Source of the DNA: Promethearchaeia archaeon
Lineage (GTDB): Archaea > Asgardarchaeota > Lokiarchaeia > Sigyniarchaeales > SOKP01
Reading direction: 5' to 3'
Assembly: GCA_029856155.1 (NCBI GenBank)
Contig: JAHQWL010000055.1
Location: 1-64,000 of the forward strand
Length of the DNA stretch: 64,000 bases
The notes below the pieces were generated by a model. The model was not told where the DNA came from. It did no database searches and worked only from the letters and a program-made list of their open reading frames with translations. Of this stretch, positions 1 through 24,201 are shown piece after piece. The position numbers and the translations under genes were made by a program. How positions within the stretch are numbered: position 1 is the stretch's first letter; every line of letters starts with the position of its first letter.

Positions 1-1001
1 TAAGACTTTCACCTCCTAATTTTAAACGCTTTATCCAGACTCGCTCTTTTGACTTAATATATGGCGGTGGGGAAGCTAATGTTGCGGTTTCATTAGCTAA
101 TTATGGAATTCCTGTTGACTTTATAACAAAATTACCAAATAATGAAATTGGTAACGCTTGTATTCAATTTCTAAGACAGTTCGGCGTAAATACAAATAAT
201 GTCGTGAGAGGAGGGAACAGAATAGGAATTTATTTTCTCGAGATGGGATCCTCTGTTCGTCCAAGTAAAGTTATTTATGATAGAGCACATTCAGCTATAT
301 CTGAAGCTAGCTCCGACGATTTTAATTGGAATAAAATTTTTGAAGGTGCTTCCTGGTTTCATTGGACTGGTATTACACCTGCAATTTCACAGAATCTGGC
401 AAAAATTTGTCTTGAAGCTGTAAAAGTTGCAAAAGAGAAAAATATTATAATATCATGCGATTTAAATTATCGTAATCAACTGTGGAATTATGGAAAAACC
501 CCAAATGAAGTAATACCCAACTTACTAAAATATTCCGATATAGCAATTGGCAATGAAGAAGATGCTGACAAAGTCCTAGGTATTAAGGCTCCGGATACAG
601 ATGTGACTTCGGGAAAACTTAATGCTGAGAATTATAAATATGTAGTCGAAGAAATATTTAAACAATATCCAAACCTAAAAAATATTGCAATTACTTTAAG
701 AGGATCAATATCTGCTAGCTATAATACGTGGTCAGCGGTTCTTTATGACGGAACTAATATGTATATTGGTCCTCAATATGAAATCAACCCAATCGTGGAT
801 AGAGTGGGCGGAGGAGACTCTTTTATGGGAGGATTAATCTATGGTCTAATCAAATATAAAGATAATCTGCAAAATGCCCTAAATTTTGCTATAGCTGCTT
901 CTTGTCTAAAACACACGATATTAGGTGATTTTAATTTAGTTTCTATTGATGAAGTTCTTAAATTAATGGGTGGAGATACTTCTGGAAGAGTATCAAGATA
1001 A
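1..1001 (+). CDS. kdgK: PfkB-family sugar kinase, 2-keto-3-deoxygluconate kinase type (5'-truncated by window)
   Basis: Frame is open from position 3 (RLSPPNFKRF...YGGGEANVAVSLA); YDRAHS, SCDLNYR, GNEED and DRVGGGDSF PfkB motifs. Confidence 0.85.
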   Translation, partial: RLSPPNFKRFIQTRSFDLIYGGGEANVAVSLANYGIPVDFITKLPNNEIGNACIQFLRQFGVNTNNVVRGGNRIGIYFLEMGSSVRPSKVIYDRAHSAISEASSDDFNWNKIFEGASWFHWTGITPAISQNLAKICLEAVKVAKEKNIIISCDLNYRNQLWNYGKTPNEVIPNLLKYSDIAIGNEEDADKVLGIKAPDTDVTSGKLNAENYKYVVEEIFKQYPNLKNIAITLRGSISASYNTWSAVLYDGTNMYIGPQYEINPIVDRVGGGDSFMGGLIYGLIKYKDNLQNALNFAIAASCLKHTILGDFNLVSIDEVLKLMGGDTSGRVSR

Positions 1002-1025
1002 TTTACATAAGAGGCTAATAATATA

Positions 1026-1832
1026 ATGAAAGATTATAAAAAAATAATTATAACTGCTACTACAGCAAATTCATGGATTTATCCCGAAGTTAAGAATTGG
1101 GCTCAAACCACTGATCAATTAATAGATGATGTAGTAGAGTGTTATGAAGCTGGTGCTGCAGTTGCGCATGTTCATCTTCCCCGCGGAGAAGAAGTCGAGA
1201 CTGTTAAAAGAATTAGAGAAAAATGTGATATCATTATACAAGCTGGTATGTCAAGCGAATCAATCCCAAAAAGAGAGGGAGATTTTAAATCAAAATCAGA
1301 AATGATGTCAGTTATGTTAACTCATCATGCAGAGCATTTTACTCAATTGAAAGTTGATATTTTGCATCCGCTAAAGGAATTAGAAGACTATTGTAAAATG
1401 TGTAAAGATCATAATATAAAACCAGAGTGGGAAGTTTGGCATCAGGGGTCATATTGGAATCTGAATTATTTAATTAATAAAAATTTGTTAGAATGGTCAA
1501 AACCTCATATCTTAACGTTATTCTTTAATTGGCCGGGGGGAACATGGTCAGCTCCAAGTTATGATGAATATGTTCATAGAAGAAAGCATATTCCACCTAA
1601 TTGTGTTCATACAGTTAGTGTAATGGGTGAAGAACAGATGAAGTTATTAGTTTTTGTTCTTACTCATGGTGGAAATATAAGGGTTGGCACAGAAGATTAC
1701 CCTTTTATCGCAAAAGGAGTGCCTGCAAAAAATAACGCTGAAATTATAAAAAATTATATTGATATTTGTAGACATGTCGGTCGTGATGTTGCTGATCCTT
1801 CCGAAGCAAGAGGAATACTGGGATTAAAATAA
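1026..1832 (+). CDS. beta-keto acid cleavage enzyme (BKACE/DUF849, Kce-like)
   Basis: EAGAAVAHVH Zn-binding HxH, KPEWEVW, GGNIRVGTED, GRDVADPSEARGILGL. Confidence 0.85.
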   Translation: MKDYKKIIITATTANSWIYPEVKNWAQTTDQLIDDVVECYEAGAAVAHVHLPRGEEVETVKRIREKCDIIIQAGMSSESIPKREGDFKSKSEMMSVMLTHHAEHFTQLKVDILHPLKELEDYCKMCKDHNIKPEWEVWHQGSYWNLNYLINKNLLEWSKPHILTLFFNWPGGTWSAPSYDEYVHRRKHIPPNCVHTVSVMGEEQMKLLVFVLTHGGNIRVGTEDYPFIAKGVPAKNNAEIIKNYIDICRHVGRDVADPSEARGILGLK

Positions 1833-1920
1833 AAAAATTGTATTTTTCCTTCTAATTCAGTTAATTATAACTAAATCTTTTTTTTTGATTTTTAAGCCAT
1901 TTCCAGAAAAGTCAGTAAGC

Positions 1921-1930
1921 TTTATATAAA
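1921..1930 (+). promoter_or_regulatory. candidate archaeal TATA box upstream of the DMT/PIG-L pair
   Basis: TTTATATAAA about 75 nt upstream of ATG 2003; AT-rich background limits certainty. Confidence 0.3.
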
Positions 1931-2893: not shown

Positions 2894-2903
2894 GGTTAGA
2901 CAA

Positions 2904-3698
2904 ATGGCAAAAATAATTTTCTTTCAACCACATCCAGATGACTTAGAACTTAACTGTGGTCATATTATTCATTACCTTGCAACAAAAAGTAAAAATAAGC
3001 ACATCATTAAGATAGCTTCAACCACAAAAGGAGAATATGGGCTTCCTGGTGCTCAGTATGATAAATTTAAAGGTGACTTTCTAGCAAAAGTCAGAACACG
3101 AGAATTATGCAATGCCCAAAGTATTCATGGAATACCTCCTGAAAATATTCACTTTTTTGGATATGTTGATGGTTTAGTAGAATTTACTAAAGATTTTACA
3201 AATGAAATTGCTGAATATTTAAAGAAGGAAAAACCAGATGTAATTTTCGCACCGGAAGCAATTTATACGTCTTATTACCACAGGGATCACGTAAATACAG
3301 GTAAGGCAATATATTACTGTATTCATAACAAATTAATCGATTTTACTCCGATTCTTTATTTTTATTCGACATTAAGTCCAAATTTTTTCTTCGGTTTTAA
3401 GAAAGAGGATTTCTCTTTAATCGATCAATTACTAGCTTGCCATAAAACCCAATTTTGGTTGATAAATTATGTAACATGGACTTATAGACCAAAAACAAGA
3501 TTAGCTGGAAGGAAGTTAAGCGGTTGGAGATATGCCGAGAAATACCGAAGAGTTTATTTTCACAAAAATAATACAAAATTGAATAAACCATCATTGATAG
3601 TTCAAATGTTAAGTCATTGGTATTCAAGCATGCCTTTTTTTAAAGCTAAATACCCACAAGATGTGTTAGCAGAGCTTAAAAAAAAAGGAAAAATCTAA
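2904..3698 (+). CDS. PIG-L/LmbE-family Zn-dependent N-deacetylase, copy 1
   Basis: HPDDLE, TKGE, RTRE, GYVDG, HRDH, CHKTQ, AE-Y motifs. Confidence 0.85.
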   Translation: MAKIIFFQPHPDDLELNCGHIIHYLATKSKNKHIIKIASTTKGEYGLPGAQYDKFKGDFLAKVRTRELCNAQSIHGIPPENIHFFGYVDGLVEFTKDFTNEIAEYLKKEKPDVIFAPEAIYTSYYHRDHVNTGKAIYYCIHNKLIDFTPILYFYSTLSPNFFFGFKKEDFSLIDQLLACHKTQFWLINYVTWTYRPKTRLAGRKLSGWRYAEKYRRVYFHKNNTKLNKPSLIVQMLSHWYSSMPFFKAKYPQDVLAELKKKGKI

Positions 3699-3849
3699 AA
3701 TATTCAAGGAGAATATGAATAAGGTTTTTAGTGTAAAATAAGTATAATAAAACTATATAAAGAACAAAAACAAAATAATCTCAATATATAATTAAGAATT
3801 TATTAAAAAGTTTGAAATTATATTTACTAAAAGAATTGAGGTGTTTTTT

Positions 3850-4191
3850 TTGGCAACTAATGAAGAAGTTAAAGAAGCATTAAATAAATGGGTGAAGGTA
3901 TTAGACGATCCAGAGATTGCGGATGAATTTGAAGGATTTAATAAAACCATGCAATTTGAATTTTCAGACATAAATTATAAAGTAAAAATGATTTTTGAAA
4001 ATAAAACAGCAAGATTAGAGGAAGGTTTTGATGAAAATGCTGAAATGGGTTTAGAAATTAATTCCGATCTTTTTGTAGGTATTGCTACCGGCGAAGTTGA
4101 TCCAATGGAAGCGTTTATGGAAGGAGAACTTAAAACAAAGGGCGATATGAACTCATTACAGAGACTAGAAGTCTTCATGGATATTGAATAG
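3850..4191 (+). CDS. stand-alone SCP2 (sterol carrier protein 2) lipid-binding domain protein
   Basis: DLFVGIATGEVDPMEAFMEGELKTKGD SCP2 signature; TTG 3850 follows a GAGGTG RBS (ORF track starts at 3841). Confidence 0.85.
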   Translation: MATNEEVKEALNKWVKVLDDPEIADEFEGFNKTMQFEFSDINYKVKMIFENKTARLEEGFDENAEMGLEINSDLFVGIATGEVDPMEAFMEGELKTKGDMNSLQRLEVFMDIE

Positions 4192-4273: not shown

Positions 4274-5398
4274 ATGGAACCAATTGGTTTTAATAAAGAA
4301 AGAACTCGTAATGTTTTAGAAGAGCACGATATTGATGTGTTAATTGCCTCTACTCCTGTAAATGTTTTTTATTTAACGGGTTTACCAACATTACATGTTG
4401 CTCCAAATCCTATTTTATACGTTTTATATAATCAATACCCGAGTTTATCTTTAGTTCGGAGAGATGGTGAGGAAAGTTTGATAATGTGGATAACTTATCG
4501 TAGCGCAGATAAATTTTCATGGGTAAGTGATATTCATGGAATAGGATCTCCTAAAGGTGCTATGGTATCAGTATCCGATAAGATTGAAGAATGGGGTTTA
4601 TCAATTAGTAAGATAGGGTATGAATCCCTTATGCCTTCTTATCAATCTGAATATCTGAGGAATAAATTTCCAAATGCGACATTTGTTAATGGTGATCAAG
4701 CTTTTTTAGATATGCGTTTAATCAAATCTGAAGAAGAAGTAAAAAGAATAAAAAAATCAACACAAATTTCTGAAAAAGCTATATTGAATATGATTGAAGC
4801 ATCTTATGAAGGAATTACTGATGTTGAATTATTACAAATCGCTCGGAAAACAATCGTTGATGAGGGTGCAGAAGGTTGGGATCATTTAACAATGAATTTG
4901 GGACCCTCTGATCCTGAAGCTCCAGGAGTAGGAACTACTCTGAAAGCAGGAGATCTTAATAGATTTGACATTGGAACTATTTGGAAAGGATATGTTTCAG
5001 ATGTCAGTCGAGAGTTAGTGATAGGACGAATACCTGATGGTGCAGAGGAGATTATGAATAATCTGATAGAAATACAAGAGTTCTGTGAACAAAGTATTTA
5101 CCCTGGATTAAATATAAAAGAATTATACAGTAATGCAAGTAAATTTAGTAAATCTCTAATAAAGAGAGGGAGAGCCTTCGTAACAGGTCACAGTATTGGT
5201 TTAGAATGTGAAGAAACTCATTTATTTAGTCCAATAAAAAAATTAGATCGACCATTTGAAGAGAATATGGTTTTTGATATTGAAATCTGGCAGAATTTCA
5301 AAAATCAAGGATTAATGGGAATTGAAGATTGTTATAGAATAAAAAGTAATGGTTGCGAGAGGCTGTCAAGTTTAGACAAGAAAATTTATGTTAAATAA
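4274..5398 (+). CDS. M24 (Xaa-Pro peptidase/creatinase-fold) metallohydrolase, copy 1
   Basis: NVFYLTG, RLIKSEEE, RFDIG..GYVSD, GHSIG, FDIE, GIEDCY. Confidence 0.85.
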   Translation: MEPIGFNKERTRNVLEEHDIDVLIASTPVNVFYLTGLPTLHVAPNPILYVLYNQYPSLSLVRRDGEESLIMWITYRSADKFSWVSDIHGIGSPKGAMVSVSDKIEEWGLSISKIGYESLMPSYQSEYLRNKFPNATFVNGDQAFLDMRLIKSEEEVKRIKKSTQISEKAILNMIEASYEGITDVELLQIARKTIVDEGAEGWDHLTMNLGPSDPEAPGVGTTLKAGDLNRFDIGTIWKGYVSDVSRELVIGRIPDGAEEIMNNLIEIQEFCEQSIYPGLNIKELYSNASKFSKSLIKRGRAFVTGHSIGLECEETHLFSPIKKLDRPFEENMVFDIEIWQNFKNQGLMGIEDCYRIKSNGCERLSSLDKKIYVK

Positions 5399-5455: not shown

Positions 5456-6592
5456 ATGAGTGATTATGTAAAGTTTGGAATAATCGGAGCGGGTTCTGCT
5501 GTCTGGCGCTACCACAAACTTGGTACGAAAAATAATCCAAAAATTAAATTTATTTCTGGTTATGATGTCGATGATAAGAAGTTAGCTAAAGCAGCTAAAT
5601 ATTCAAAATTAGAACCTTATTCGAACTTAGATGGTTTTTTCAAAAGTGATATCGATGCGGTTATGGTTTTAGTACCACATTATCTACACAAAGATTTAGT
5701 CATTGCAGCAGCCGAAGCCGGAAAACATGTCATCTGTGAAAAACCTATGGCAACCACACTTGAGGAATGTGATGAGATGATAGCAGCCACGAAGAAGGCT
5801 GGTATAAAATTTATGATCGCAGAGAATCATCGATTCCTACCAGCTCATCAATTTATAAAAGATGCTATAGAACGTGGATTTATTGGAGATGTATTTCTTG
5901 GTCGAACTTATGAAGGTGCGTATGCTGCTTCACAATTTTTTGGTACTGATGATTGGAGTTTTACATACTCTAAAGGTGGTGGCGGTGTAGTTTCAGATCA
6001 AGGAGTACATAAGTTTACCATGCTAAATTGGATTCTTGGAGACGTCGATTCAGCTCAATGCTGGTTAAGTAAGACTTTGAAATCGCCCCCTAATAAAGGA
6101 GAAGATACAGCCATAATTCTATTACGCTATAAATGCGGTGCTATTGTGACAGTGGATATTTCCTCAAGTACAGTACATCCGCTTACAAATAAAACAGAAT
6201 TACACGGAACAAAAGGTACGATTTTTGAAGATCATGACTGGGAGAGACCTGTTAAAATACTTTCCTCTCATCCTGAGGCTGAAGTAAAGGGAGAGTATTA
6301 TAGTCCTGAAATCGAACATGGACCTTTTCCAGATTATTATAAAATATCCATGGGCCATGAAGATGCATATTTTGCTGAATGTATTTTAGAAGATAAGAAA
6401 CCAGAATTTACACCAGAAGAAGCAAGACAAGGTGTTGCAGTGGTTCTCTTAGCATATCTATCTGCTAAAAATGGAAGAATGACTTCGATGGATGAATTAA
6501 TTGAAGTTTATAAAAAAGAAGGAACAAGGAGTATATTAGAAGGACTTGGAGAAGTAACACAAAAAAATTATGTTAATTTGAATTGGGATTAA
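5456..6592 (+). CDS. Gfo/Idh/MocA-family oxidoreductase, copy 1
   Basis: GIIGAG, PHYLH, GKHVICEKPMA, GGGVVSDQGVH. Confidence 0.9.
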   Translation: MSDYVKFGIIGAGSAVWRYHKLGTKNNPKIKFISGYDVDDKKLAKAAKYSKLEPYSNLDGFFKSDIDAVMVLVPHYLHKDLVIAAAEAGKHVICEKPMATTLEECDEMIAATKKAGIKFMIAENHRFLPAHQFIKDAIERGFIGDVFLGRTYEGAYAASQFFGTDDWSFTYSKGGGGVVSDQGVHKFTMLNWILGDVDSAQCWLSKTLKSPPNKGEDTAIILLRYKCGAIVTVDISSSTVHPLTNKTELHGTKGTIFEDHDWERPVKILSSHPEAEVKGEYYSPEIEHGPFPDYYKISMGHEDAYFAECILEDKKPEFTPEEARQGVAVVLLAYLSAKNGRMTSMDELIEVYKKEGTRSILEGLGEVTQKNYVNLNWD

Positions 6593-6619: not shown

Positions 6620-8551
6620 TCAAATTTTTGTAATTTTTACTGTATGGATTCCATTTTCTTTGATGATTATAGATACTAATTGATTTTTTTCATCTTTTTG
6701 TATTTCACCCTCTGATACATCTATATTATAACCGTTTGGATAATGGATTTTTGGAATAAAAATAGTTGTTGAACCATTTATGGAAACATCACCGTCAAAC
6801 TCAAAATGAAAGAATCCTTCCTTCATTTGAAAATCCATTTTTTTTGGAATGCCGGTACAACGAATGAAATGTGGGCGACAGAAACCCTTAATTGCTCTTC
6901 CACCGCTATTAATATCATCTGGATTAACTTTTTGATCTATACTATAAATTGATAAATCCTCTAAATTCCACAAATCCCCCCATTCGTTAGAATTATCTGG
7001 AGTATAATTCCATTGTAATGCATGTAATAAATTAGCATCCATAGCATTATAGTAATTATTTAGAGCTTTTACATGTGTTTTCCAAGCTTCATCCGGTGCA
7101 GATTTAAATTTTTCATAAGCTTCTTTATTATTTAGATCAAATGGTAATCCAAATTCCTCAATTATTGTAGGAATGCGCCCAAAAAAAGAATTAGAGTAAT
7201 CCTTAATATTTTCTAATTGTGAAATGAACATTTGTTTAACATTTTTTTTACCTATAACCGGAGATCCTGTAATTAGATTATAATTAGCTTTAAGCATTGC
7301 TTTTTTTGTACCCGTTGTTGCTACATCGTACCAGTGGGCAGCATGTACACTATTAGATGGTATATCTAATTCAAATACTTCTCCTTTCATCACGCTTTCC
7401 ATAGGTCCTGTAAGAAATATTATTGCATTTGAAAATACTGTTCTGATTGCTTCAGTATAAGCTTTTAAGAAAGAAGAAAAATAATCTCGATAGAAATCAA
7501 TTTTATCTCCATTTTTATAGAGAAAATATTCATTTTTCAAAATCTGTGGATTTCCAACCTCATCTAATCCCCATAGACCCTCTTTTTTCCATATATCTTC
7601 AAATCCTTTTAACCAACATGATATTTTTCTTTGATTTAACTCATCTTTTCTTGTTTCTTTAATACCAAATCTTTTAACTTCTTGATATCCAATAGTTCTA
7701 GAATATCCTGCTCCTGTAAGCATAGCATCTATAGGAGTAAAAACATGTCCCATCACATCAGATTTTCCTTCCCACTCACTTCCATCGACATATTTACCAA
7801 TCCAGCCTTCAGGAGGTTCATTTAATATATCGAATCCTAGTACATGTGAATTATCTTTTACCCTCGATGCTACTTGTTTCATAGCATCAAAGAAATGATT
7901 CTGGAAGTAATCTTGAGCGTTTTTTCCATCAATTAAACATGAAGGTGCAAAATCCTTTCCACCAAAAAATAAAGTCCACATTGTTCCATTCGCAAATCTA
8001 TAAGTATTCCCCGTCCAATGCATTGGAAGATATTTTGCAAGGTCATTAGGGTCATATCTAAGTTGCATTGCAAGTGCTGCCTCAGAGCTTTCAAATTTAG
8101 TGTAATCTAACCCTATTTTTTCAAATGTCCAACCGGGTGCCCCATCTCCACCAGTAATTCTACTCCAAACATCCTGATGAGAATCGATAAACGTATAAAA
8201 TTTATAACTTTCGGCAATCTTTAATACCTCTTCGAGATAATCTAAAAATTCTTTATCAAATTCTCCTGGTCCGCTGTGCTCAATTGCTTCCCAAGTTACC
8301 AAAAACCTGAGACAATTAAAACCCCAATGCTTTAAGCGTGAAAAATGTTCATCTGCCTTTTTTAGAGGAAATGGGCGACCAACAAAAGAAACGTCCCTAT
8401 GATCACTAAAATCAGTTTTTATATGGGTTGCCCCATTAGGAGTAAAAGGGACTTTTGAGCTTCCACCCAGATTCACACCCCTTAGTAATACTGTTCGGCC
8501 TTTATCGTCAATAAAATATTCATTTTTTACTCTTAATGTCATTTTAATCAA
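6620..8551 (-). CDS. GH5 glycoside hydrolase, endoglycoceramidase-related / steryl-beta-glucosidase type (GH5_12-like)
   Basis: GRTVLLRGVNLGGSSKVP, FVGRPFP, TWEAIEH, DSHQDVWSR..GGDGAP, NEP acid/base, HWYD, EEFG nucleophile, WNY..GDLWNLEDLS, C-terminal beta domain. Confidence 0.85.
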   Translation of the reverse strand: MIKMTLRVKNEYFIDDKGRTVLLRGVNLGGSSKVPFTPNGATHIKTDFSDHRDVSFVGRPFPLKKADEHFSRLKHWGFNCLRFLVTWEAIEHSGPGEFDKEFLDYLEEVLKIAESYKFYTFIDSHQDVWSRITGGDGAPGWTFEKIGLDYTKFESSEAALAMQLRYDPNDLAKYLPMHWTGNTYRFANGTMWTLFFGGKDFAPSCLIDGKNAQDYFQNHFFDAMKQVASRVKDNSHVLGFDILNEPPEGWIGKYVDGSEWEGKSDVMGHVFTPIDAMLTGAGYSRTIGYQEVKRFGIKETRKDELNQRKISCWLKGFEDIWKKEGLWGLDEVGNPQILKNEYFLYKNGDKIDFYRDYFSSFLKAYTEAIRTVFSNAIIFLTGPMESVMKGEVFELDIPSNSVHAAHWYDVATTGTKKAMLKANYNLITGSPVIGKKNVKQMFISQLENIKDYSNSFFGRIPTIIEEFGLPFDLNNKEAYEKFKSAPDEAWKTHVKALNNYYNAMDANLLHALQWNYTPDNSNEWGDLWNLEDLSIYSIDQKVNPDDINSGGRAIKGFCRPHFIRCTGIPKKMDFQMKEGFFHFEFDGDVSINGSTTIFIPKIHYPNGYNIDVSEGEIQKDEKNQLVSIIIKENGIHTVKITKI

Positions 8552-11607: not shown

Positions 11608-11799
11608 ATGGGCGCTATAGAACAAGTAAAATTTGGAATAATTAGGTATGGAAATGCAAGTAGTTATCATATATTAGGGATTAAAAAAGATCCAAATCTT
11701 AATATTAAGTTTATTGTTGCCTATGATATAAATGAAAAAAATTTAAATCATGTTTCTAAGAGAAATTATATTCTAAAGGATTTTTTGCCTGTAATTTAA
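11608..11799 (+). pseudogene. N-terminal remnant of a Gfo/Idh/MocA paralog
   Basis: VKFGIIRYGNASSYH..IKFIVAYDINEK aligns with the N-terminus of 5456 (VKFGIIGAGSAVWRYH..IKFISGYDVDDK); GxG broken and ORF ends after 63 aa. Confidence 0.7.
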
Positions 11800-16187: not shown

Positions 16188-17309
16188 TCATCTAATAAAA
16201 ATGTTTTTATCTAAACTTGAGAGTCGTTCACAACCGGAACTAGTTATTCTATAACAATCTTCGATACCTACTAATCCCTGACCTCTAACATTTTGCCATG
16301 CCTCTACATCTAATACCATATTTTCCTTTATAGGACCATCATAGGTATGTCCAGGTCCAAATATGTGTGCTTCTTCGGTTTCTAACCCTATACTGTGGCC
16401 AATTATACTACAAAAACCTTTTCCTAATTGTTTGTAATATTTATAAGCACCATTATATAATTCTTTTGGATCTGCTCCGGGTTTAAGGTTTTCTAAACAA
16501 AATTCTTGAACCTTTATCATATTTTCCATTGCTTTTACACCCTTTTCAGGAGCTTGTCCAACAACAGCATCTCGACTCACATCTGAAACATATCCCTTCC
16601 AAACAGCTCCAAAATCAAATCTAATCATATCACCTGGCTTCACAATGGTACCAACACCGGGTGCTTCTGGATCTGAATCCCCAATATTCATAGTTAAATG
16701 ATCCCAGCCTTCTGCTCCTTCTTTAACGATAGTACTTCGTGCAATTTGAAGTAATTCATTATCTGTTATTCCTTCTTTTAAAGATTCAATGCAATTTAGA
16801 ATGGCTTTTTCGGCAATTTGAGTTGATTTCCTAATTCTATTTATTTCTTCCTCGGATTTAATTAAACGCATTTCTAAAAATACGTTATCCCCATCAACCA
16901 AAGAAGCGTCTGGAAATTCCTTTCGGAGAAATTCTGATTGATATCGAGGCATAAGAGCTTCAATGCCAATTTTTTTATTTTTTAGACCAAAATCTTCAAG
17001 TTTTTCTCCTAATAATTTTAAACCACCTTTAGGGGAGCCAACACGTTCATAATTTTTTACCCAAGAAAACTTTTCAACACTATCATACAATGCCCATATG
17101 AGTAAGAATACTTCTCCGTCGTTAGTTATTATTGAAAAACTGGGATATTGATTATACAAAACAAATAGTATTGGATTAGGGGCAACATGAAGTGTAGGAA
17201 TCCCGGTTGTATAAAAAACATTAACTGGCGTAGTAGCAATTAAAGCATCAAGATTAAACTTTTCGAGAAGTTCAATCGCTCTTTTCTTATTATATCCTAT
17301 TGGTTCCAT
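16188..17309 (-). CDS. M24 metallohydrolase, copy 2
   Basis: Paralog of 4274..5398 (shared PTLHVAPNPIL, EGAEGWDHLTMN, SDPEAPGVGT, GIEDCYRI). Confidence 0.85.
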   Translation of the reverse strand: MEPIGYNKKRAIELLEKFNLDALIATTPVNVFYTTGIPTLHVAPNPILFVLYNQYPSFSIITNDGEVFLLIWALYDSVEKFSWVKNYERVGSPKGGLKLLGEKLEDFGLKNKKIGIEALMPRYQSEFLRKEFPDASLVDGDNVFLEMRLIKSEEEINRIRKSTQIAEKAILNCIESLKEGITDNELLQIARSTIVKEGAEGWDHLTMNIGDSDPEAPGVGTIVKPGDMIRFDFGAVWKGYVSDVSRDAVVGQAPEKGVKAMENMIKVQEFCLENLKPGADPKELYNGAYKYYKQLGKGFCSIIGHSIGLETEEAHIFGPGHTYDGPIKENMVLDVEAWQNVRGQGLVGIEDCYRITSSGCERLSSLDKNIFIR

Positions 17310-17383: not shown

Positions 17384-18172
17384 TTAATTCTCTTTAAGCT
17401 TTAAAAGCATTTCTTGAGGATATTTTGCTTTCGTCCAAGGAAGATTAGAAAAAAAATGGGTAAAAATTCTTACTATTAGTGGTGGTTTATTCTTATATAC
17501 ATATTTTTTATTGAAATATACACGTCGATATGGTTCAGCATATTTCCATCCATGGAGCGTTCTTCCCGCGAACCTGCTAAATGGTCGATATGGGAGCATA
17601 GTATATCTTAAAAGCCATTGTTGTGTTCTATGACAAGTAATCAATTTATAGGTTAAACTTTTGATATCCTTTTTTTTAAAGCCAAAAAAGAAATTTGGAT
17701 GCAGACACGTGTAGAAATATAGGATTGGTGTGAAATTAATTAATTTCTTGTGGATAATGTAAAATAAAACTCTTCCAGTGTTTATATGGTCCATATGATA
17801 ATACCATGTATAGATAGCTTCTGGAGCAATAATAATATCTGGTCTTTCTTTTTTAAGATATTCAGCAACCCTATTAACAAAATCTTTATTGAATGGTACA
17901 AATCCATCAATATATCCAAAGAAGTCTATATTCTCAGGCAGAATTCCATGAATTTTCTCTGCATTAAATAATTCTCGTGTTCTAATTTTTGCTAGCAAAT
18001 CTCCTTTAAATTTATCATATTTGGGTCCCGGAAGTCCAAATTCTCCTCTAGTGAGTGAAGCAATTTTAATAATATGATTTTTTTTACTTTTAGTAGCTAA
18101 ATAATGCATCAAGTGCCCACACTTATGTTCTAAATCATCAGGATGAGCTTGAAAGAATATAATTTTAGTCAT
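17384..18172 (-). CDS. PIG-L/LmbE-family N-deacetylase, copy 2
   Basis: HPDDLE, TRGE, HMDH; paralog of 2904..3698. Confidence 0.85.
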   Translation of the reverse strand: MTKIIFFQAHPDDLEHKCGHLMHYLATKSKKNHIIKIASLTRGEFGLPGPKYDKFKGDLLAKIRTRELFNAEKIHGILPENIDFFGYIDGFVPFNKDFVNRVAEYLKKERPDIIIAPEAIYTWYYHMDHINTGRVLFYIIHKKLINFTPILYFYTCLHPNFFFGFKKKDIKSLTYKLITCHRTQQWLLRYTMLPYRPFSRFAGRTLHGWKYAEPYRRVYFNKKYVYKNKPPLIVRIFTHFFSNLPWTKAKYPQEMLLKLKEN

Positions 18173-18195: not shown

Positions 18196-19086
18196 TTACT
18201 TTATCTCTTCCAATTGAGCTGATCTTTTTCCCAATAGGAAAGAACTAATTATAATTAGAGTTAATCCAATAATTAAATAGTAAATAGAGAAGACACTGGG
18301 GGGTGTTAAAAGAAATATTAGAAAATATATTACGATAGGCGCAATTAAAGTAGGAACTTGTTGTATTGGAACTAAGTTACTTGCTTGGCCAACTGTAAAC
18401 GATTTTTGAATCGTCATGACCCCTAAAACATTAGATAAAATTAGGATAATGCAAGAGATAATAAATATAAACAATTCTCCTAAGTCAAAACTACCATTAA
18501 ATATTTTAGCTATAACTCCGATTAGGGGGCTTACCCAGAAATTTGAAAGTACAAACAATAACCCAGATAATGTTGCTAATAAAATCCCCTTGAATCTTAT
18601 ACTTTTCCGCTGTAACATATAACAAATAAAAGAGAATAAAATAACCACTAATGTAAAGATAATAATCCTAATAAGAAATGAAATCTCCACTAAATTTGTA
18701 TTTGCAATATCAATTGATAATTCACTAATTCCTAATAGAAAAAACGCTAATATCATTAGAAAAATTCCTAAAATTTCTGCTTTATTTAAAGTTTCTCCCA
18801 CAATCTTTATAGAACCTATTGCTAAGACAATTAATCCTGAAGCCATAAATCCAGGAATTAATGCAGGACCAATGAATAATTGAGCCATCATATAAAGAAT
18901 AGCTCCTAATCCGTATTGTAAAATAAGACCACTTAGCCATAATCTTTTTTTAACTAGGCTTCTAAAAAATTTTGCTTCATCAGGGAGTTCATTTATTACC
19001 TTCTTTTGGAATACAGTACCAAGATGATTTGATAATCCGGATGATATAGCTAATGAAACCCCCAACCAATAGAAACTAACAGCCAT
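18196..19086 (-). CDS. DMT-superfamily (NIPA-like) transporter, copy 2
   Basis: Same length (296 aa) and shared blocks (VFQKKV.NE, AKFFRSLVKK, IGPALIPG, PIQQVP, AQLE.IK) with 2003..2893. Confidence 0.7.
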   Translation of the reverse strand: MAVSFYWLGVSLAISSGLSNHLGTVFQKKVINELPDEAKFFRSLVKKRLWLSGLILQYGLGAILYMMAQLFIGPALIPGFMASGLIVLAIGSIKIVGETLNKAEILGIFLMILAFFLLGISELSIDIANTNLVEISFLIRIIIFTLVVILFSFICYMLQRKSIRFKGILLATLSGLLFVLSNFWVSPLIGVIAKIFNGSFDLGELFIFIISCIILILSNVLGVMTIQKSFTVGQASNLVPIQQVPTLIAPIVIYFLIFLLTPPSVFSIYYLIIGLTLIIISSFLLGKRSAQLEEIK

Positions 19087-19225: not shown

Positions 19226-20722
19226 ATGACTTTGAATAAAATAAAAATTCAGGTTGTTTTTATTGGCAAGCCACAATGGGAAGCTGGATGGCCCTATTTA
19301 GGTTATGACAACTTTAAGTTAATAGATGAGATTAAGGAACGTTTAATTAAGAAGTTTCCAAATGTTGCATTTGATTGGGGAAGTATGATTATTTCATATG
19401 ATAAAGTTTTAGTTGATAATATTAAAGAAAATATATTAAAAGCAAACGGAATAATTATCTTTACAATAGGTCATTATGGAGATCCTGGAATAGTTCAAGC
19501 GGGGATTGAATTTATCGAAAGTGATAAACCAGTTATTCTCGCTAATTATATTTATGGCGGAGATCACACTTTTACCAAAATCTATTCCAATATCAAAGAC
19601 AAAAATTATCAAGTATTTCCAATATCTTCACGAAAGATTGAAGATTTTGAAAAACCAATTGAAACAATGATTAACTTACTACGTTTAAGGGGAAAGAGTG
19701 TCTTGGTTTATGCAAGCGATGTAATAAAAATGAATTGGGATGTTATATTAGGGTTATTCAATCCAGAACGTAAAGTTATATTAAAAAATCATCCAGAATT
19801 TCTTGAACAAGTTGGAAAAATGAGTGGTAATAAAGAGTTTGAATTTTATACAGACACTGTTGGTAAAGACCAAGCGCATCAGTGGAGGATGGATGAAACA
19901 AAGTATAGAGAAAATTTGAAACAAATATTTGGTATAGAAATGATAAGAGGAGATCCAGATGAGATTCTGGAATATTATTCGAAAGTAAATGAGGATGAAG
20001 CTAAAATTGTTGCTGATAAATGGATTAAAAATGCACTAAAAGTAGAGCCATCTGAAAAAACAGTCCTGAATTCTGCAAAATTATATATCGCTTTTAAAAA
20101 AATTTTACAAGATAGAGATATTGATTTTTTTACCCCTGATTGTGGAACATTCTTATTGACAGGAATATTACCTGCTTATCCTTGTATGGCTTATTTCGAA
20201 TTAAGTAATGAAGGAAAATATGGTATATGTGAATCTGATATAGATTCAACAGTAAGTTTTCTCTTTGGTTTATATTTGGTTGATCGACCTGGATTTGTAT
20301 CTAATCATACCCTTGATGTTACTAATGATCAGATTACATATATGCACTGTGTAGCCCCAGATAAGCTTTACGGAATTAATGGTCCCCCAACTCCATATGA
20401 AATTGTTTATCATGGTGAAACTCATTACTTAGGTGCTTCTCCTTGTGTTAAATTCCCTATTGGTGAAATTGTCACAACAATTAAAATAAGTGTTTTTGAG
20501 AAGAAAATATCAATCAGACAAGGAACTATTATTGATAATGTGGTTGATGATAAAGGATGCGTCTCAAAAATGTTGGTAAAAAGTAATGTAGAAAAAATTA
20601 TGAAAAATTATGACTGGGAAACATTTGGTTGGCACCGGGTAACTTTTATTGGTGATTGGAAGGAAGTTTTCATAATTGGAGCCAAAATCTTAGGTTTAGA
20701 GATTCTTGAAGAAGATCAATAA
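19226..20722 (+). CDS. L-fucose/L-arabinose isomerase-like protein
   Basis: PC..ELS..GICESD, HCVAP, YHGE, FGWHR C-terminal pattern typical of FucI-related proteins. Confidence 0.65.
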   Translation: MTLNKIKIQVVFIGKPQWEAGWPYLGYDNFKLIDEIKERLIKKFPNVAFDWGSMIISYDKVLVDNIKENILKANGIIIFTIGHYGDPGIVQAGIEFIESDKPVILANYIYGGDHTFTKIYSNIKDKNYQVFPISSRKIEDFEKPIETMINLLRLRGKSVLVYASDVIKMNWDVILGLFNPERKVILKNHPEFLEQVGKMSGNKEFEFYTDTVGKDQAHQWRMDETKYRENLKQIFGIEMIRGDPDEILEYYSKVNEDEAKIVADKWIKNALKVEPSEKTVLNSAKLYIAFKKILQDRDIDFFTPDCGTFLLTGILPAYPCMAYFELSNEGKYGICESDIDSTVSFLFGLYLVDRPGFVSNHTLDVTNDQITYMHCVAPDKLYGINGPPTPYEIVYHGETHYLGASPCVKFPIGEIVTTIKISVFEKKISIRQGTIIDNVVDDKGCVSKMLVKSNVEKIMKNYDWETFGWHRVTFIGDWKEVFIIGAKILGLEILEEDQ

Positions 20723-20828: not shown

Positions 20829-22205
20829 ATGATGAATGATACGAAAAATGAGAATAAGGATAAAGTACACTCGCGTTTAGGTCATCTGTTATATTCTTTA
20901 GGAGCTGTACCATCTGCACTTCCATTTAATATGATCGGAACATGGCTATTAACTTTTTATACTGTTCATGCAGGTCTCTCCCTCACTAATTATGGTCTCC
21001 TCCTTATGCTTTATGGGATATGGAATGCGATAAACGACCCTTTGATTGGATATTACATGGATAAAATCAAATTTAAAAAAGGACGTCGGATACCATGGAT
21101 TATTTATGGAACCATTCCAATGACGATAGGGTTTATTGCACTGTGGTGGGTCCCATATACAGAAAGTGGTCTAATTTTCTTTCATGGTTTTTTAATGCTA
21201 TTTCTATTTGATACTGGATTTACAATGACGATTACAGCTTGGAGTGCTTTATATACAGAGATGTATGAAGATGAGAAGGAGCGAGCTTCAGTAGTAGCTA
21301 TCAAAGACACAATAGCATTTACTTCTTCTATGATCGGTGTTATGATTCCTTCTATGATTGCAGCAGCACTTGGTAGTTGGGCAATAACAGGAATTTTAAT
21401 GGGTATTTCTATTCCTATTACAATGTATCTTTCTCTTTTAGGGACAAAGGAAAGATTAGAGTATCAAACAGATGAACCTTTACCAATATATAAAGCATTT
21501 AAAGAAACATTTTCAAATAAACCATTCTTAATAGGATCAATAACATATGCAATGCTTGATTTTTGTTTTGGCTTTACTATGATGATTCTTCCTCTTTATG
21601 CAAAATTTATTTTAAATGTTGAGGAGGGTATGGAAGGATTGGCTATGGCGGGGGTAGCTATAGGGATAATTACGGGTATACCCTTATGGTGGAGGATATA
21701 TGGGAAGAAAGGACCAAAATTTGGTTTAGCACTTTCGATGATTATATTTGGCATAGGAATGATATTTCTCTTTTTTGCATATGATTTTATTACATTGACA
21801 ATTATAGGGCTTTTCCCTGGAATTGGTGTAGGTGGTACGTTAATGACTGAGCCAGTAATTTCTGCGGGAATAGATTATGATGAATTAAAGATAGGAAAAA
21901 GGAGGGAAGCGACATATGGAGGAATTGGATCTTTTATTGCACGATTATCAATGATTCTTTCAGCTTTAGCTTTAATGCTTGTCCAATTTTTTAGCGGATT
22001 TGACCCTAAATTAGGTACTCAATCATCTACAGCTTTAGTTGGGTTAAAACTATCTATTTCGATTGTTCCTGCTATTGGTATTTTAATTGGTTTATTAATA
22101 TTTAAATATTTCCCACTAAATTACAAGAAATTCAGTGAACAACAAGAAAAATTGAAAATTCTTCATGAAGAACGTTTAAGAAAACTAGAATTAGAAAATA
22201 ATTAA
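20829..22205 (+). CDS. GPH-family (MFS_2, MelB-like) symporter
   Basis: WNAINDPLIGYYMD, GRRIPW, ER, DYDELKIGKRREATYGG; 12 TM segments. Confidence 0.9.
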   Translation: MMNDTKNENKDKVHSRLGHLLYSLGAVPSALPFNMIGTWLLTFYTVHAGLSLTNYGLLLMLYGIWNAINDPLIGYYMDKIKFKKGRRIPWIIYGTIPMTIGFIALWWVPYTESGLIFFHGFLMLFLFDTGFTMTITAWSALYTEMYEDEKERASVVAIKDTIAFTSSMIGVMIPSMIAAALGSWAITGILMGISIPITMYLSLLGTKERLEYQTDEPLPIYKAFKETFSNKPFLIGSITYAMLDFCFGFTMMILPLYAKFILNVEEGMEGLAMAGVAIGIITGIPLWWRIYGKKGPKFGLALSMIIFGIGMIFLFFAYDFITLTIIGLFPGIGVGGTLMTEPVISAGIDYDELKIGKRREATYGGIGSFIARLSMILSALALMLVQFFSGFDPKLGTQSSTALVGLKLSISIVPAIGILIGLLIFKYFPLNYKKFSEQQEKLKILHEERLRKLELENN

Positions 22206-22279
22206 TTTTTTTTAACATATTTTTTCTTTTTAATTATAAGATGTTTTCGTGATATAAATCCAATAGAGTTGATTATAAT

Positions 22280-23095
22280 TTGAAGTGTGATCTTAAAAAT
22301 ATAGAAATCTATTATGAAATCTACGGTGATGGATATCCAGTTCTTATGCTTCATGGATTTGTTCCTGATCACCGTCTAATGAAAGGATGTATGGAACCCA
22401 TTTTTGAAAATAAAGATCATTACAAACGTATTTATTTTGATTTACCAGGTATGGGGAAAACTGTCGGACCAGAATGGTTAAAAAATTCAGATCAGATACT
22501 CAATGTCGTTTTAGAATTTATTGATAAGATTATTCCTAATCAAAAATTCATAATTGCGAGTGAATCTTATGGATGCTATTTAGCAAGAGGTATTCTTTTA
22601 AAAAGATCTAAATTTATTGATGGCATCTTATTTATTTGTCCTCTTATAATACCTGAACCTGAAAAAAGAGAGTTACCTAAAGATTTTATGATTTTAATAA
22701 AGGATCCTGAGTTAATTTCTAGTTTAAGTCCTTCAGATGCTGATGAATTAAAAGAATCTTTAGTAATTCAGAGTAAAGATACTTGGGAGAGATATCGAGA
22801 TGAAGTCTTTTCTGGGGTGAAAATTGCGGATCAAAGTTTTTTAGATAAAATATTTCCAGATCATTATAAATTTTCTTTCGAGGTTGATCAACTTTTAGAA
22901 ATTTATGATAAACCAACCTTATTTCTTTTAGGGAGACAAGATAAAACAGTTGGATATCGTGATGCTTGGGAAATAATTGAGAATTATCCTAGCGCTACTT
23001 TTGCTATTCTTGACCAAGCAGGTCATAATCTACAAATAGAAAAAGCGAAATTATTTAATTCTTTAGTAATTGAATGGTTAGATAGGATTGAATAG
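22280..23095 (+). CDS. alpha/beta hydrolase
   Basis: LHG, DLPGMG, SESYG nucleophile elbow, GRQD, AGHN. Confidence 0.88.
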   Translation: MKCDLKNIEIYYEIYGDGYPVLMLHGFVPDHRLMKGCMEPIFENKDHYKRIYFDLPGMGKTVGPEWLKNSDQILNVVLEFIDKIIPNQKFIIASESYGCYLARGILLKRSKFIDGILFICPLIIPEPEKRELPKDFMILIKDPELISSLSPSDADELKESLVIQSKDTWERYRDEVFSGVKIADQSFLDKIFPDHYKFSFEVDQLLEIYDKPTLFLLGRQDKTVGYRDAWEIIENYPSATFAILDQAGHNLQIEKAKLFNSLVIEWLDRIE

Positions 23096-23133
23096 AGTAT
23101 TTCCTTGAAAAATAAAGATTAGAAGGAATTATT

Positions 23134-24201
23134 TTAATTAATTGGTTCAATTTCTTTAGGTTCTTCTCGTGGTATTCTTTCTTCTACTGGTAAAAGTGGT
23201 TTAAATTCTTTATGAGGTTCTGTTTGATACCAATATGCTGTAGAAGACCAATCATCTGAACGTTGATTTGCATGACCATGTTCCATTTTAACTTTAATAT
23301 TTTTATGAAAATATATAGGATCTTCTATATGATATCTATAATATGAAATCTTCCCACTCCAGTTGTTTCCTCCTGGTATTGTTATTCCAAAATAAGGAGA
23401 ACAATAATACTCTGAAGGACCCCATGCTGTACAAAAATAATCCTCAGTTCCTGTTCCATATAGGATAATCTCACCATCATCAATTTCTATGTAGTCATCT
23501 CCTTCACCTGGCCAATTTTGTTCATTAGTAACATAAAGATTATGAATATCTAAATGACAACCAACATAATGACCTTCACCTTCAGCTTCTAAAAGAATAT
23601 AGTCGTCTTCATGAGTTTTATTTCGTTTAAACCATCGTTGTGGTTTTTTCAAACTATAATCATTTCCTTTACATAGATTCTCGCGATTCCAATGTACATG
23701 AAATCTCCCTAAATCAGAATCCAATTCTAAATATTCTTCGTAATCAACATAGTAATAAAAAATCAAAGAAGTGTCACATTCGTTCTCTATTTCAATTCTA
23801 GCACTTCTAGAAAAAGGCATTGGCCAGAAACTATTAAATCCTTTTCCTTCCCGAGGGCTCATAGAAAGAGGTAAACTCCAAAAATTTACAGATTGAGCAT
23901 GACCAATTCCAAAAAAATCCCCTATGGGACATTCAACTGAAGGATTAATCTCATCATCCCACCACATCCGGATTAATATTTTTCTCAAATAGTATGGATC
24001 AGGATCTATAGTACCAATAGTTATCCAGATATGCTTTATAATTCCAGAACTTTGGATATTGCATAATTCAAATTTTCTTTTTGAATTAATTATTATATTA
24101 TCATTATTGGTGCCACGTATATTATAACTGGAAATCCTTTTTCGTTTTACATTTTTTTTAATTTTTGCTAAATTCATTAACGAACTAAATCCAAATTCCA
24201 T
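23134..24201 (-). CDS. DUF2961 / GH172 glycoside hydrolase
   Basis: SSY, HIWIT, PSVECPIGDFFG, PMPF, WPGEGD, GTGTEDYF, YRYHIEDPIYF, AYWYQ. Confidence 0.9.
   Translation of the reverse strand: MEFGFSSLMNLAKIKKNVKRKRISSYNIRGTNNDNIIINSKRKFELCNIQSSGIIKHIWITIGTIDPDPYYLRKILIRMWWDDEINPSVECPIGDFFGIGHAQSVNFWSLPLSMSPREGKGFNSFWPMPFSRSARIEIENECDTSLIFYYYVDYEEYLELDSDLGRFHVHWNRENLCKGNDYSLKKPQRWFKRNKTHEDDYILLEAEGEGHYVGCHLDIHNLYVTNEQNWPGEGDDYIEIDDGEIILYGTGTEDYFCTAWGPSEYYCSPYFGITIPGGNNWSGKISYYRYHIEDPIYFHKNIKVKMEHGHANQRSDDWSSTAYWYQTEPHKEFKPLLPVEERIPREEPKEIEPIN

Follow-up and report, generated by a model that had tools for sequence, protein, structure and literature searches.

A recurrent gene cluster of Asgard archaea, fused from three modules, with a probable role in cytoplasmic catabolism of small glycosides

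The window analyzed here, a 64-kb stretch of DNA from a sediment Asgard archaeon, carries a conserved gene cluster that is common to many Asgard lineages. Gene families were assigned by searches of Pfam, NCBIfam, and the PDB, together with one fold prediction, and every family named in the original prediction was recovered at its predicted position. The clustering recurs at more than 40 loci in at least eight Asgard families; this is far beyond chance, which rules out chance juxtaposition and bears out the conservation across Asgard MAGs that the original prediction had proposed as its test. We found no published description of the cluster. Three modules have been joined in the island, and other Asgard genomes carry each of them on its own. 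Module A consists of a DMT-like permease, PIG-L, SCP2, Gfo-a, and a sterylglucosidase-like GH5. Module B, the core, has Gfo-b, a variant M24 adjoining SDR-b, then SDR-a, BKACE, and a KDG-type kinase. Module C has an AraA/FucI-fold isomerase, a GPH permease, an alpha/beta hydrolase, GH172, UPF0047, and an enoyl-CoA hydratase. We think it reasonably probable that the fused modules work together in the uptake of small glycosides and their breakdown in the cytoplasm, along an undescribed route. The genes are:

3–1001, +, PfkB sugar kinase, KDG/KDGal-kinase-like (B; Pfam PfkB, 107 bits)
1026–1832, +, BKACE (B; Pfam BKACE, 146 bits)
2003–2893, +, 8-TM permease, DMT superfamily-like (NIPA/EamA), copy a (A; EamA, E = 0.012)
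2904–3698, +, PIG-L/LmbE-family deacetylase, copy a (A; Pfam PIG-L, 72.8 bits)
3841–4191, +, stand-alone SCP2 lipid-binding domain protein (A; Pfam SCP2, 49.6 bits, cut-off 21.3)
4274–5398, +, variant M24 dimetal hydrolase (creatinase_N + M24), copy a (B; Pfam)
5456–6592, +, Gfo/Idh/MocA oxidoreductase a, Gfo-a (A; Pfam)
6620–8551, −, cytoplasmic GH5 β-glucosidase, sterylglucosidase/EGCrP type, with GH5_C β-sandwich (A; Pfam Cellulase + GH5_C)
8695–9444, +, SDR-a (B; Pfam adh_short_C2, 204 bits)
9506–11430, −, ABC-2 permease and ATPase (Pfam)
11608–11823, +, relic of a third Gfo/Idh/MocA gene (tblastn to Gfo-a)
11854–12549, +, Asp/Glu-type amino-acid racemase (TIGR00035, 140 bits, cut-off 93)
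12583–13368, −, SDR-b (B; Pfam, 221 bits)
13417–14541, +, Gfo/Idh/MocA oxidoreductase b, Gfo-b (B; Pfam)
14711–16159, −, amidase-signature amidase (Pfam Amidase, 377 bits)
16188–17309, −, variant M24 hydrolase, copy b (B; Pfam)
17384–18172, −, PIG-L deacetylase, copy b (A; Pfam, 68.7 bits; 66% identity to copy a)
18196–19086, −, DMT-like permease, copy b (A; 58% identity to copy a)
19226–20722, +, unnamed-family protein, L-arabinose/L-fucose isomerase fold (C; AF2 and Foldseek)
20829–22205, +, GPH (glycoside-pentoside-hexuronide) cation symporter (C; MFS_2, 195 bits; TIGR00792, 160 bits)
22280–23095, +, alpha/beta-fold hydrolase (C; Pfam Abhydrolase_1; synteny)
23134–24201, −, GH172 (DUF2961) glycosidase (C; Pfam DUF2961, 262 bits; synteny)
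24279–25508, −, UPF0047 protein and crotonase-family enoyl-CoA hydratase (C, tail; Pfam)

The borders first drawn, 1–24201, were slightly off. On the left, the cluster runs past the contig end; its continuation on contig C65 includes another GH5 and the complete kinase gene (345 aa), which has lost about 13 codons here. On the right it reaches 25508, as module C includes UPF0047 and the enoyl-CoA hydratase (PRK08259, 407 bits; cut-off 273). This tail accompanies GH172 at L073–L079, L105, and L126, where module C stands alone, and module A at L057 and L061. Module B stands alone at seven loci (L030, L031, L035, L040, L041, L046, and L047). The module A series DMT–PIG-L–SCP2–Gfo-a–GH5 occurs alone at L057, L060, and L061, loci that also appear as fusions of A with C. 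A is fused to B in two families (f11 and f26), B to C at four loci (L080, L085, L090, and L121), and all three modules are joined in the genus of the source genome. Gene orders and orientations of the fused modules vary between Asgard families. The single linear route drawn in the original prediction is not supported, as the island consists of three separable modules. The diverged cassette copies a and b (52–66% identity) are both retained in several genera and probably serve two related substrates.

A search of 301 Asgard genomes found M24 orthologs in 58 genomes and orthologs of BKACE in 59. Of the 62 genomes with at least one of the two, 55 have both, and in 44 of the 55 the pair lies no more than 10 kb apart. 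No gene of the cluster is as conserved as SDR-b (74–91% identity across families), a constant neighbor of M24; the Asp at the end of its strand β2 (LSD) suggests that it uses NAD. SDR-a, whose nearest solved proteins are β-hydroxyacid/3-hydroxybutyrate dehydrogenase-like, usually adjoins BKACE in other genomes, and the kinase does so at most loci. Gfo-b is normally divergent from M24 (six loci: L030, L031, L034, L035, L041, and L047). The HxH, E, and ED residues of BKACE align with those of Kce structures (3c6c and 2y7d), and its scores against all NCBIfam equivalogs are below every cut-off. The kinase scores 510 bits against the kinase half of NF041633 and 193 bits against the Haloferax KDG kinase model. 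The description of the M24 proteins (62% identity between copies) as atypical is borne out by alignment: the five metal ligands are retained, and Glu is found opposite both histidines that contact the substrate in P. furiosus prolidase. The core (M24–SDR–BKACE–Gfo) is widespread without GH5, PIG-L, or SCP2, and its neighbors in other lineages are IlvD/EDD dehydratase, FAH (a C–C hydrolase family), OYE, GH3, a DHDPS-type aldolase, and aldose 1-epimerase.

The GH5 is steryl-glucosidase-like, as predicted, with the fungal sterylglucosidases SglA (8exd, E = 1e-103) and Sgl1 (7lpo, E = 3e-95) as its closest solved relatives. When aligned to these, using published reference residues (PMC8497620), it retains the acid/base of NEP and the nucleophile Glu, as well as K, HxD, W, and ED, which bind glucose. 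Its catalytic domain is of comparable length to that of Sgl1, including the region that forms the Sgl1 cap, and its coding sequence probably begins at the ATG at 8542. The family is a large one, with 563 clusters at 50% identity, and uncharacterized bacterial relatives (Leptospira, 486 bits) outscore the fungal enzymes (351 bits); a specificity for sterols or ceramides is therefore not transferable. GH5 is also solitary in families f16, f18, and f31, and is therefore not tied to the core; within family f1 its presence follows that of M24 in 32 genomes. Gfo-a is its constant neighbor (adjoining at L032, L038, L044, L045, L057, L060, and L061), with an IolG-like best NCBIfam match (147 bits, under the cut-off). 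The SCP2 gene is present in all observed copies of module A, together with GH5, PIG-L, and the permease, which makes a hydrophobic ligand plausible. PIG-L copy a has visible HPDD and HRDH motifs, and its best solved relative is Pyrococcus diacetylchitobiose deacetylase (E = 5e-13). The two transporters earlier called DMT are present as 296-aa permeases with eight TM-like windows and atlas neighbors in NIPA/EamA clusters (score 0.98), but their class is a lead rather than firm, EamA at E = 0.012 being the sole Pfam match. The predicted FucI-like isomerase of module C is a 498-aa protein with no Pfam match and just 129 homologs, all named hypothetical. Its AF2 model (pLDDT 92.7) has the L-arabinose/L-fucose isomerase fold, with Foldseek matches to AraA (4r1p, E = 7e-21, TM 0.64) and to FucI and D-arabinose isomerase (E = 1e-12 to 1e-14). 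Loci as distant as those of Anaerolineae, Sigynarchaeum, and Thermoproteota still have the isomerase followed by GPH.

No signal peptide was found on any cluster enzyme, so the substrates must be imported, and cytoplasmic enzymes combined with small-solute carriers fit small glycosides better than membrane lipids. Catalytic residues are intact in GH5, PIG-L, BKACE, and M24 (in the last, the metal ligands). In the proposed route, glycosides would enter through the DMT-like and GPH carriers. The capped GH5 would take one β-glucose off a compound with a greasy aglycone, GH172 would cleave off a furanoside-type sugar, and PIG-L would de-N-acetylate (or de-N-acylate) an amino sugar, while SCP2 would hold the hydrophobic substrate or freed aglycone. 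The Gfo-type dehydrogenases could then oxidize the freed sugar or cyclitol and the AraA/FucI-fold enzyme isomerize an aldose. The variant M24 metal hydrolase may cleave a non-peptide C–N or ring bond, a reaction for which we know of no fitting precedent. The SDRs would convert a 3-hydroxy acid to a 3-keto acid, from which BKACE, with acetyl-CoA, would form acetoacetate and a shorter acyl-CoA. In parallel, the KDG-type kinase may supply a 2-keto-3-deoxy sugar acid to KDPG aldolase, encoded, like IlvD/EDD, elsewhere in the source genome; no lactonase or dehydratase was found in the window. BKACE and the kinase, already proposed as end steps, remain reasonable in that role. None of the enzymes given a step reaches an equivalog cut-off, so each step is assigned from its family. 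There are precedents for such enzyme combinations: the oxidative deoxyribose pathway uses SDR and BKACE on a sugar acid (PMC6365646), and the anaerobic phloroglucinol pathway uses SDR, metal hydrolase, dehydrogenase, and BKACE on a carbocycle (PMC10470551).

The original prediction was of glycolipid scavenging. On this view, glucosides of sterols, ceramides, or archaeal lipids would be taken up together with N-acyl amino-sugar lipids, GH5 and PIG-L would strip the head group, SCP2 would carry the lipid, and the acyl parts would go to β-keto-acid cleavage and β-oxidation. The conserved catabolic cluster stands, but only module A (GH5 and SCP2) points to a lipid substrate, and we regard this reading as unlikely. 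It gains from the resemblance of GH5 to solved sterylglucosidases in glucose-binding residues and cap region, the constancy of SCP2 in module A, the nearby alpha/beta hydrolase and enoyl-CoA hydratase, and the sampled habitat, marine and salt-marsh sediment; BKACE family members reportedly can accept long-chain 3-keto acids. Against this, the core occurs without GH5, SCP2, or PIG-L, beside sugar-acid enzymes or GH3, the carriers are of types for small-solute uptake and the enzymes all cytoplasmic, GH5 belongs to a very large family in which the Leptospira relatives are nearer than the fungal enzymes, and the amidase is not conserved. The β-oxidation genes noted downstream do exist (48.9–63 kb) but lie 25–40 kb from the island, beyond POR operons, peptidases, and CTP synthase, and belong to no module.

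Quite unlikely, in our estimate, is catabolism of glycosides with a carbocyclic aglycone, either a cyclitol (as in GlcNAc-inositol or glucosyl-inositol, for example) or a phloroglucinol-type polyphenol, in which deglycosylation would be followed by oxidation or reduction of the ring by Gfo and SDR, opening by M24, and cleavage of the resulting 3-hydroxy/3-keto acid by BKACE. IolG (inositol 2-dehydrogenase) is the best match of both Gfo proteins, and characterized PIG-L relatives act on GlcNAc-inositol; IolE, IolD, and IolB homologs are absent from the cluster. The pairs M24 + SDR-b and SDR-a + BKACE resemble, respectively, the reductase and Mn cyclohydrolase and the dehydrogenase and BKACE of the anaerobic phloroglucinol pathway, families f17 and f23 have FAH and an OYE ene-reductase on the flanks of the core, and aryl aglycones would go well with SCP2 and a GH5 whose pocket is hydrophobic. 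However, the phloroglucinol enzymes DPGC (cyclase family) and TfD (HAD family) differ in family from the cluster's hydrolase and second dehydrogenase, BKACE reaches just 91 bits with the triacetate-type model (cut-off 430), and SDR-b looks NAD-specific from its sequence, whereas phloroglucinol reductase is NADPH dependent. That the island holds unrelated sugar, amide, and acid genes with no common pathway, kept together solely by the shared ancestry of close genomes, is very improbable. The modules are separable, the amidase, ABC-2, and racemase genes are clearly passengers, and a search of the cluster's intergenic regions found no common operator motif; yet the same modules are joined repeatedly, in varied orders and orientations, in different Asgard families, M24 and BKACE co-occur near-perfectly over the phylum, and GH5 follows M24 in family f1. 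As to the small-glycoside reading, the modules may adjoin since glycoside genes gather, with no common intermediate.

Several genes of the island lie outside the modules. Orthologs of the ABC-2 permease and ATPase stand beside the cluster at L065 and L095 only, and the pair is an occasional passenger outside the core. The racemase is present, as predicted, but its cluster membership is limited to same-genus loci. The amidase, likewise present, is absent from the clusters of all relatives and is an insertion particular to this cluster; paralogs at 56–57% identity are encoded elsewhere in the source genome. The Gfo relic matches residues 5–48 of Gfo-a (E = 9e-9) and residues 360–377 (E = 0.012), leaving about 48 N-terminal and 18 C-terminal codons with the middle deleted; an intact gene occupies this position at L020–L024.

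The genes that had been read from the sequence of the island, the first ~25 kb of the window, were recovered at their predicted positions by open reading frame (ORF) listing and profile searches. None of the island enzymes has a signal-peptide-like N terminus, and the only membrane proteins are two DMT-like proteins, a GPH carrier, and an ABC-2 permease. The DMT-like proteins (296 amino acids each) resemble their namesakes weakly (Pfam EamA, E = 0.012), and their atlas neighbors are NIPA/EamA clusters. By profile scores, the PfkB protein at the contig edge is KDG/KDGal-kinase-like. Its best match, with 510 bits, is the kinase half of an aldolase-kinase fusion model whose cut-off of 700 applies to the whole fusion, and it scores 193 bits against the Haloferax KDG kinase model (cut-off 440). 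The SCP2 protein is a predicted lipid-binding domain (49.6 bits, cut-off 21.3, covering profile positions 2–100 of 101), and the GH172 protein matches the DUF2961 profile with 262 bits (cut-off 27). A biosynthetic cluster was rejected, as glycosyltransferases and aminotransferases are absent. A crude search of this AT-rich DNA for a common operator motif found no 10–12-mer in three or more of 15 intergenic regions.

Conservation within the genus was probed by running tblastn with the window proteins against loci of ten genomes of that genus. The cluster is found throughout these, most commonly as a single cassette in the order GH5-PfkB-BKACE-SDR-a-Gfo-racemase-SDR-b-Gfo-b-M24-SCP2-PIG-L-DMT-(isomerase-GPH)-hydrolase-(GH172). 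Among 301 Asgard genomes, orthologs of M24 occur in 58, of BKACE in 59, and of both in 55; in 44 of these 55 genomes the two genes lie less than 10 kb apart on the same contig (our own count). The core (module B) was found in about a fifth of the genomes and in 16 of 70 genera. GH5 orthologs occur in 72 of the 301 genomes, including families that lack the core, where the gene is solitary in its locus. The predicted conservation of the neighborhood across Asgard genomes is therefore confirmed, and it takes the form of island modules that recur in other genera and families. The island resolves into three modules, each of which also occurs on its own elsewhere.

Occurrence of the modules (L numbers are loci read in other genomes; f numbers are Asgard families)
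Module A alone (DMT-PIG-L-SCP2-Gfo-a-GH5): L057, L060, L061
Module B alone (Gfo-b divergent from M24-SDR-b, with SDR-a-BKACE-PfkB): L035, L040, L047, L030, L031, L041, L046
Module C alone (isomerase-GPH-(hydrolase)-GH172-UPF0047-enoyl-CoA hydratase): L073–L079, L105, L126
Modules A and B joined: families f11 and f26
Modules B and C joined: L080, L085, L090, L121
Modules A and C joined: L057, L060, L061
Modules A, B, and C joined: the window's genus

Even Anaerolineae, Sigynarchaeum, and Thermoproteota retain the isomerase-GPH pair. Since the modules have been joined repeatedly in different arrangements, their association argues for a functional link beyond inherited neighborhood. Gene conservation identifies three components as passengers: no relative has the amidase in its cluster, only two relatives (L065 and L095) have the ABC-2 pair beside theirs, and the racemase is restricted to the window's genus. 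The original prediction had counted the amidase and racemase as parts of the catabolic cluster and had placed β-oxidation genes downstream of it. Those elements are not supported as parts of the cluster, and the gene list, the FucI-like fold, and the conserved neighborhood stand.

The island contains mirror-image duplicates of the DMT (58% identity), PIG-L (66%), M24 (62%), and Gfo (52%) genes; its two SDRs are 40% identical. Both M24 paralog types are seen in several genera belonging to the same family, where each genome gives two matches (e.g., genomes G150, G110, G301, G166, and G141). Retention of both paralogs in several genera indicates that the cassette duplication is old and that both copies have been kept, as judged from these matches. 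Two further features were noted.

11608–11823, + strand: relic of a third Gfo/Idh/MocA gene, with ∼48 N-terminal and ∼18 C-terminal codons and the middle deleted, between the ABC-2 pair and the racemase
C65:1–6200 (locus L133, another contig of the window's own genome, G000): a GH5 paralog 65% identical, a PfkB 97% identical, and a 775-aa LVIVD-repeat gene inserted ahead of the BKACE start

Relatives have an intact Gfo/Idh/MocA gene at the place of the relic. C65 is another assembled version of the left edge of the window. Its content suggests strain variation in the population and shows that the cluster runs on to the left of the window.

Both M24 paralogs of the core retain all five ligands of the dinuclear metal site (D, D, H, E, E), based on alignment of copy a with 1pv9, 1wy2, and 2zsg. 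The Creatinase_N domain, the pita-bread fold, and these ligands are shared with prolidase/aminopeptidase P, creatinase, the ectoine hydrolase DoeA, and the DMSP lyase DddP. However, the two histidines that contact substrate in prolidase (one in the “PH” loop, the other in “HE”) are both replaced by glutamate, giving SDPE and ECEE in copy a and SDPE and ETEE in copy b. Because of these replacements, we do not file the proteins as prolidase or aminopeptidase P (M24B). Scores are far under the prolidase and DoeA cut-offs, and the pairing with SDR and BKACE sets the proteins apart from prolidase and from the non-peptidase enzymes creatinase, DoeA, and DddP. An ectoine-type route (M24 hydrolase, deacetylase, and racemase) was dropped in view of the DoeA scores and the genus-specific racemase. 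The BKACE protein (Pfam, 146 bits) aligns with Kce at the Zn/catalytic residues (HxH, Glu, and Glu-Asp, in VHL/HVH, PEWE, and TED). Its scores against the NCBIfam models for Kce, triacetate lyase, and 3-oxoadipate transferase (119, 91, and 82 bits) fall short of the cut-offs (382, 430, and 350, respectively), and it is not an equivalog of any of the three.

Neighbors of the core in other Asgard lineages
Family f17: operon M24-SDR-b-BKACE-FAH-x-IlvD/EDD-Gfo
Family f23: old-yellow-enzyme reductase, FAH
Family f2: GH3 glycosidase, sulfotransferase
Family f26: DHDPS-type aldolase
Family f11: aldose 1-epimerase, prolyl oligopeptidase
Genus g16: sulfatase

By annotation, the core keeps company with genes for the oxidative breakdown of sugars and sugar acids, supplied by glycosidases. 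Elsewhere in the window's genome there are genes of the IlvD/EDD and FAH types and one for a KDPG aldolase. The prolyl oligopeptidase of f11 (L032:11436–13484, + strand) lies between SDR-b and SDR-a and is divided into two ORFs, the propeller and the catalytic domain, which could reflect a frameshift or a real split.

Two published pathways that use the SDR and BKACE pair offer precedents. In the oxidative deoxyribose route of Pseudomonas simiae and Paraburkholderia, a sugar 1-dehydrogenase and an SDR lead to a 3-keto sugar acid, which BKACE converts to acetoacetate and an acyl-CoA; in this deoxyribose/deoxyribonate pathway, the genes for the SDR and for BKACE are adjacent (Price et al., 2019, PMC6365646). 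The same adjacency is found in the Asgard core, but here the dehydrogenase is Gfo-type rather than molybdenum-dependent, there is an additional M24 hydrolase as well as a KDG-type kinase, and the BKACE does not score as an ortholog. The lactonase and glycerate kinase of the deoxyribose pathway were not found in the cluster by profile searches. The anaerobic phloroglucinol pathway of Clostridium scatologenes uses an SDR, a Mn hydrolase that opens the ring, a dehydrogenase, and a BKACE (PGR, DPGC, TfD, and TAL; PMC10470551). The core has the same four-step logic, in which SDR, divalent-metal hydrolase, 3-hydroxyacid dehydrogenase, and BKACE lead to acetoacetate and an acyl-CoA. The hydrolase is, however, M24 here and of the cyclase family there, the second dehydrogenase is an SDR here and of the HAD family there, and the Asgard BKACE is far below the cut-off of the triacetate-type model (91 bits vs 430). 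The core resembles both pathways in logic; the enzyme families differ, the scores are below every equivalog cut-off, and it is a member of neither.

In module C, the 498-aa protein (19226–20722, + strand) has no Pfam or NCBIfam membership, reaches only 27.7 bits against the SftI model, and finds nothing in the PDB by sequence; only a fold search gave a match. Its AF2 model (pLDDT 92.7, pTM 0.92) has strong matches only to AraA (E = 7e-21, TM 0.64) and to L-fucose/D-arabinose isomerase (FucI, TM 0.62), with a Foldseek probability of 1.0. The label “FucI-like” is thus supported by the model at the level of the fold. The match to this three-domain fold spans the whole chain, yet identity to these isomerases is only 10–13%. 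All 129 homologs, from Asgard, Anaerolineae, Thermoproteota, Nitrososphaerota, Korarchaeota, and Brockarchaeota, are annotated “hypothetical”; E336, H374, and H470 are invariant in the family. The homologs are usually followed by a GPH permease (L112, L118, L113, L117, and L122), and in the window the gene adjoins the glycoside permease and GH172. Characterized GH172 members release D-arabinofuranose or fructofuranose.

The GH5 protein of module A, for which the CAZy subfamily name GH5_12 had been given in the original prediction, matches the fungal sterylglucosidases SglA (E = 1e-103) and Sgl1 (E = 3e-95), compared with only 1e-10 to 1e-16 for bacterial endoglycoceramidase II. The catalytic residues of Sgl1 are Glu270 and Glu520, and its glucose-binding residues are Lys47, His142, Asp144, Trp570, and Glu587 (PMC8497620). 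Alignment with SglA (and not directly with Sgl1) places the retaining catalytic pair, the NEP acid/base and the nucleophile Glu, and shows the glucose-binding K, HQD, W, and ED positions to be conserved. Residues 4–541 align unbroken with SglA 24–587, so the archaeal protein has the extra elements that may form a cap around a buried hydrophobic pocket for the aglycone, and the C-terminal β-sandwich is recognized by Pfam Glyco_hydro_5_C (51 bits, cut-off 22). Intracellular location is a further likeness to Sgl1/EGCrP2 (Cryptococcus, PDB 7LPO) and SglA (Aspergillus, PDB 8EXD). Identity to these enzymes is, however, about 40% or less, and the archaeal gene is part of a permease/PIG-L/SCP2/Gfo module, which has no counterpart around the fungal genes. 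The ORF as listed begins at TTG, three codons 5′ of an ATG (8542–8551 in the window). The ATG at 8542 is the likelier start, because several orthologs have an in-frame TAA within the match although their reading frames are open over almost the whole length; these stops are most simply explained by a query begun three codons upstream of the real ATG.

The two PIG-L copies (Pfam, 72.8 and 68.7 bits) keep the HPDD and HxDH zinc/catalytic motifs as PHPDD/AHPDD and HRDH/HMDH. They share these motifs and the PIG-L/LmbE fold with MshB, BshB, and the Dac of the Thermococcales chitin pathway. By NCBIfam and PDB comparison, they are not orthologs by score of characterized Dac, MshB, or BshB: the BshB1 model gives 35 bits (cut-off 182), and the best solved match, the Dac structure 3wl4, is weak (E = 5e-13). 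Unlike Dac, their partners are GH5, SCP2, and Gfo, and the cluster has no chitinase, GlmA, or glucosamine kinase. A Thermococcales chitobiose route was dropped on these grounds, the weak likeness to Dac and the missing chitinase/glucosaminidase partners.

We consider it reasonably probable that the island encodes a modular system for the catabolism of glycosides in the cytoplasm, with KDG phosphorylation and β-keto-acid cleavage as its end steps. The original prediction had proposed the scavenging of glycolipids or N-acyl-aminosugars. The sterylglucosidase-like GH5 and the constancy of SCP2 in module A favor a glycolipid substrate, but the core is independent of that module, the carriers for uptake are of the small-solute type, and all the enzymes are cytoplasmic. 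Moreover, the β-oxidation genes are distant from the island, and the GH5 protein belongs to a very large family, which forms 563 clusters at 50% identity (E below 1e-30) and in which uncharacterized relatives from bacteria (Leptospira, 486 bits), and also from protists, are nearer to the archaeal protein than the fungal enzymes. A glycolipid role for the island is consequently rather unlikely. A specific version of it, which we regard as quite improbable, would make module A a dedicated Asgard system that salvages amphipathic glycosides (steryl glucosides, glucosylceramides, or the abundant glycosidic ether lipids of archaea) from sediment, in which SCP2 would hand the lipid on and the core would serve as a new route to open and shorten the released moiety in a CoA-sparing manner. 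If this were true, an Asgard lineage would possess eukaryote-like glycolipid and sterol-handling biochemistry, and the M24 fold would have a new, non-peptidase reaction.

At least two enzyme types in the cluster lack an assigned reaction: the M24 proteins with His replaced by Glu and the new AraA/FucI-fold family. The cluster is undescribed in the literature searched, and the NetSyn paper on BKACE does not mention an M24 context. The map of modules A, B, and C shows which genes to co-express and which to omit as passengers. Asgard archaea of the Lokiarchaeia type are abundant in coastal and marine sediments, and little is known about their substrates. Metagenomes of marine and salt-marsh sediment contain DNA of the window; should the substrate prove to be a glycolipid or a glycoside from plants or algae, these organisms would have a concrete ecological role in sediment carbon turnover.

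Two ORFs in the window have no Pfam family. One encodes 129 amino acids (25641–26030, + strand) and is conserved at 77–84% identity beside the enoyl-CoA hydratase in genomes of the window's genus; the other encodes 950 amino acids (55402–58254, − strand). Between 48861 and 62946 lies a loose β-oxidation-type set, comprising acyl-CoA dehydrogenase, enoyl-CoA hydratase, AMP-forming acyl-CoA ligase, MaoC/MFE-2 hydratase, and thiolase, with a TPP enzyme, a Zn-ADH, and CTP synthase interspersed.
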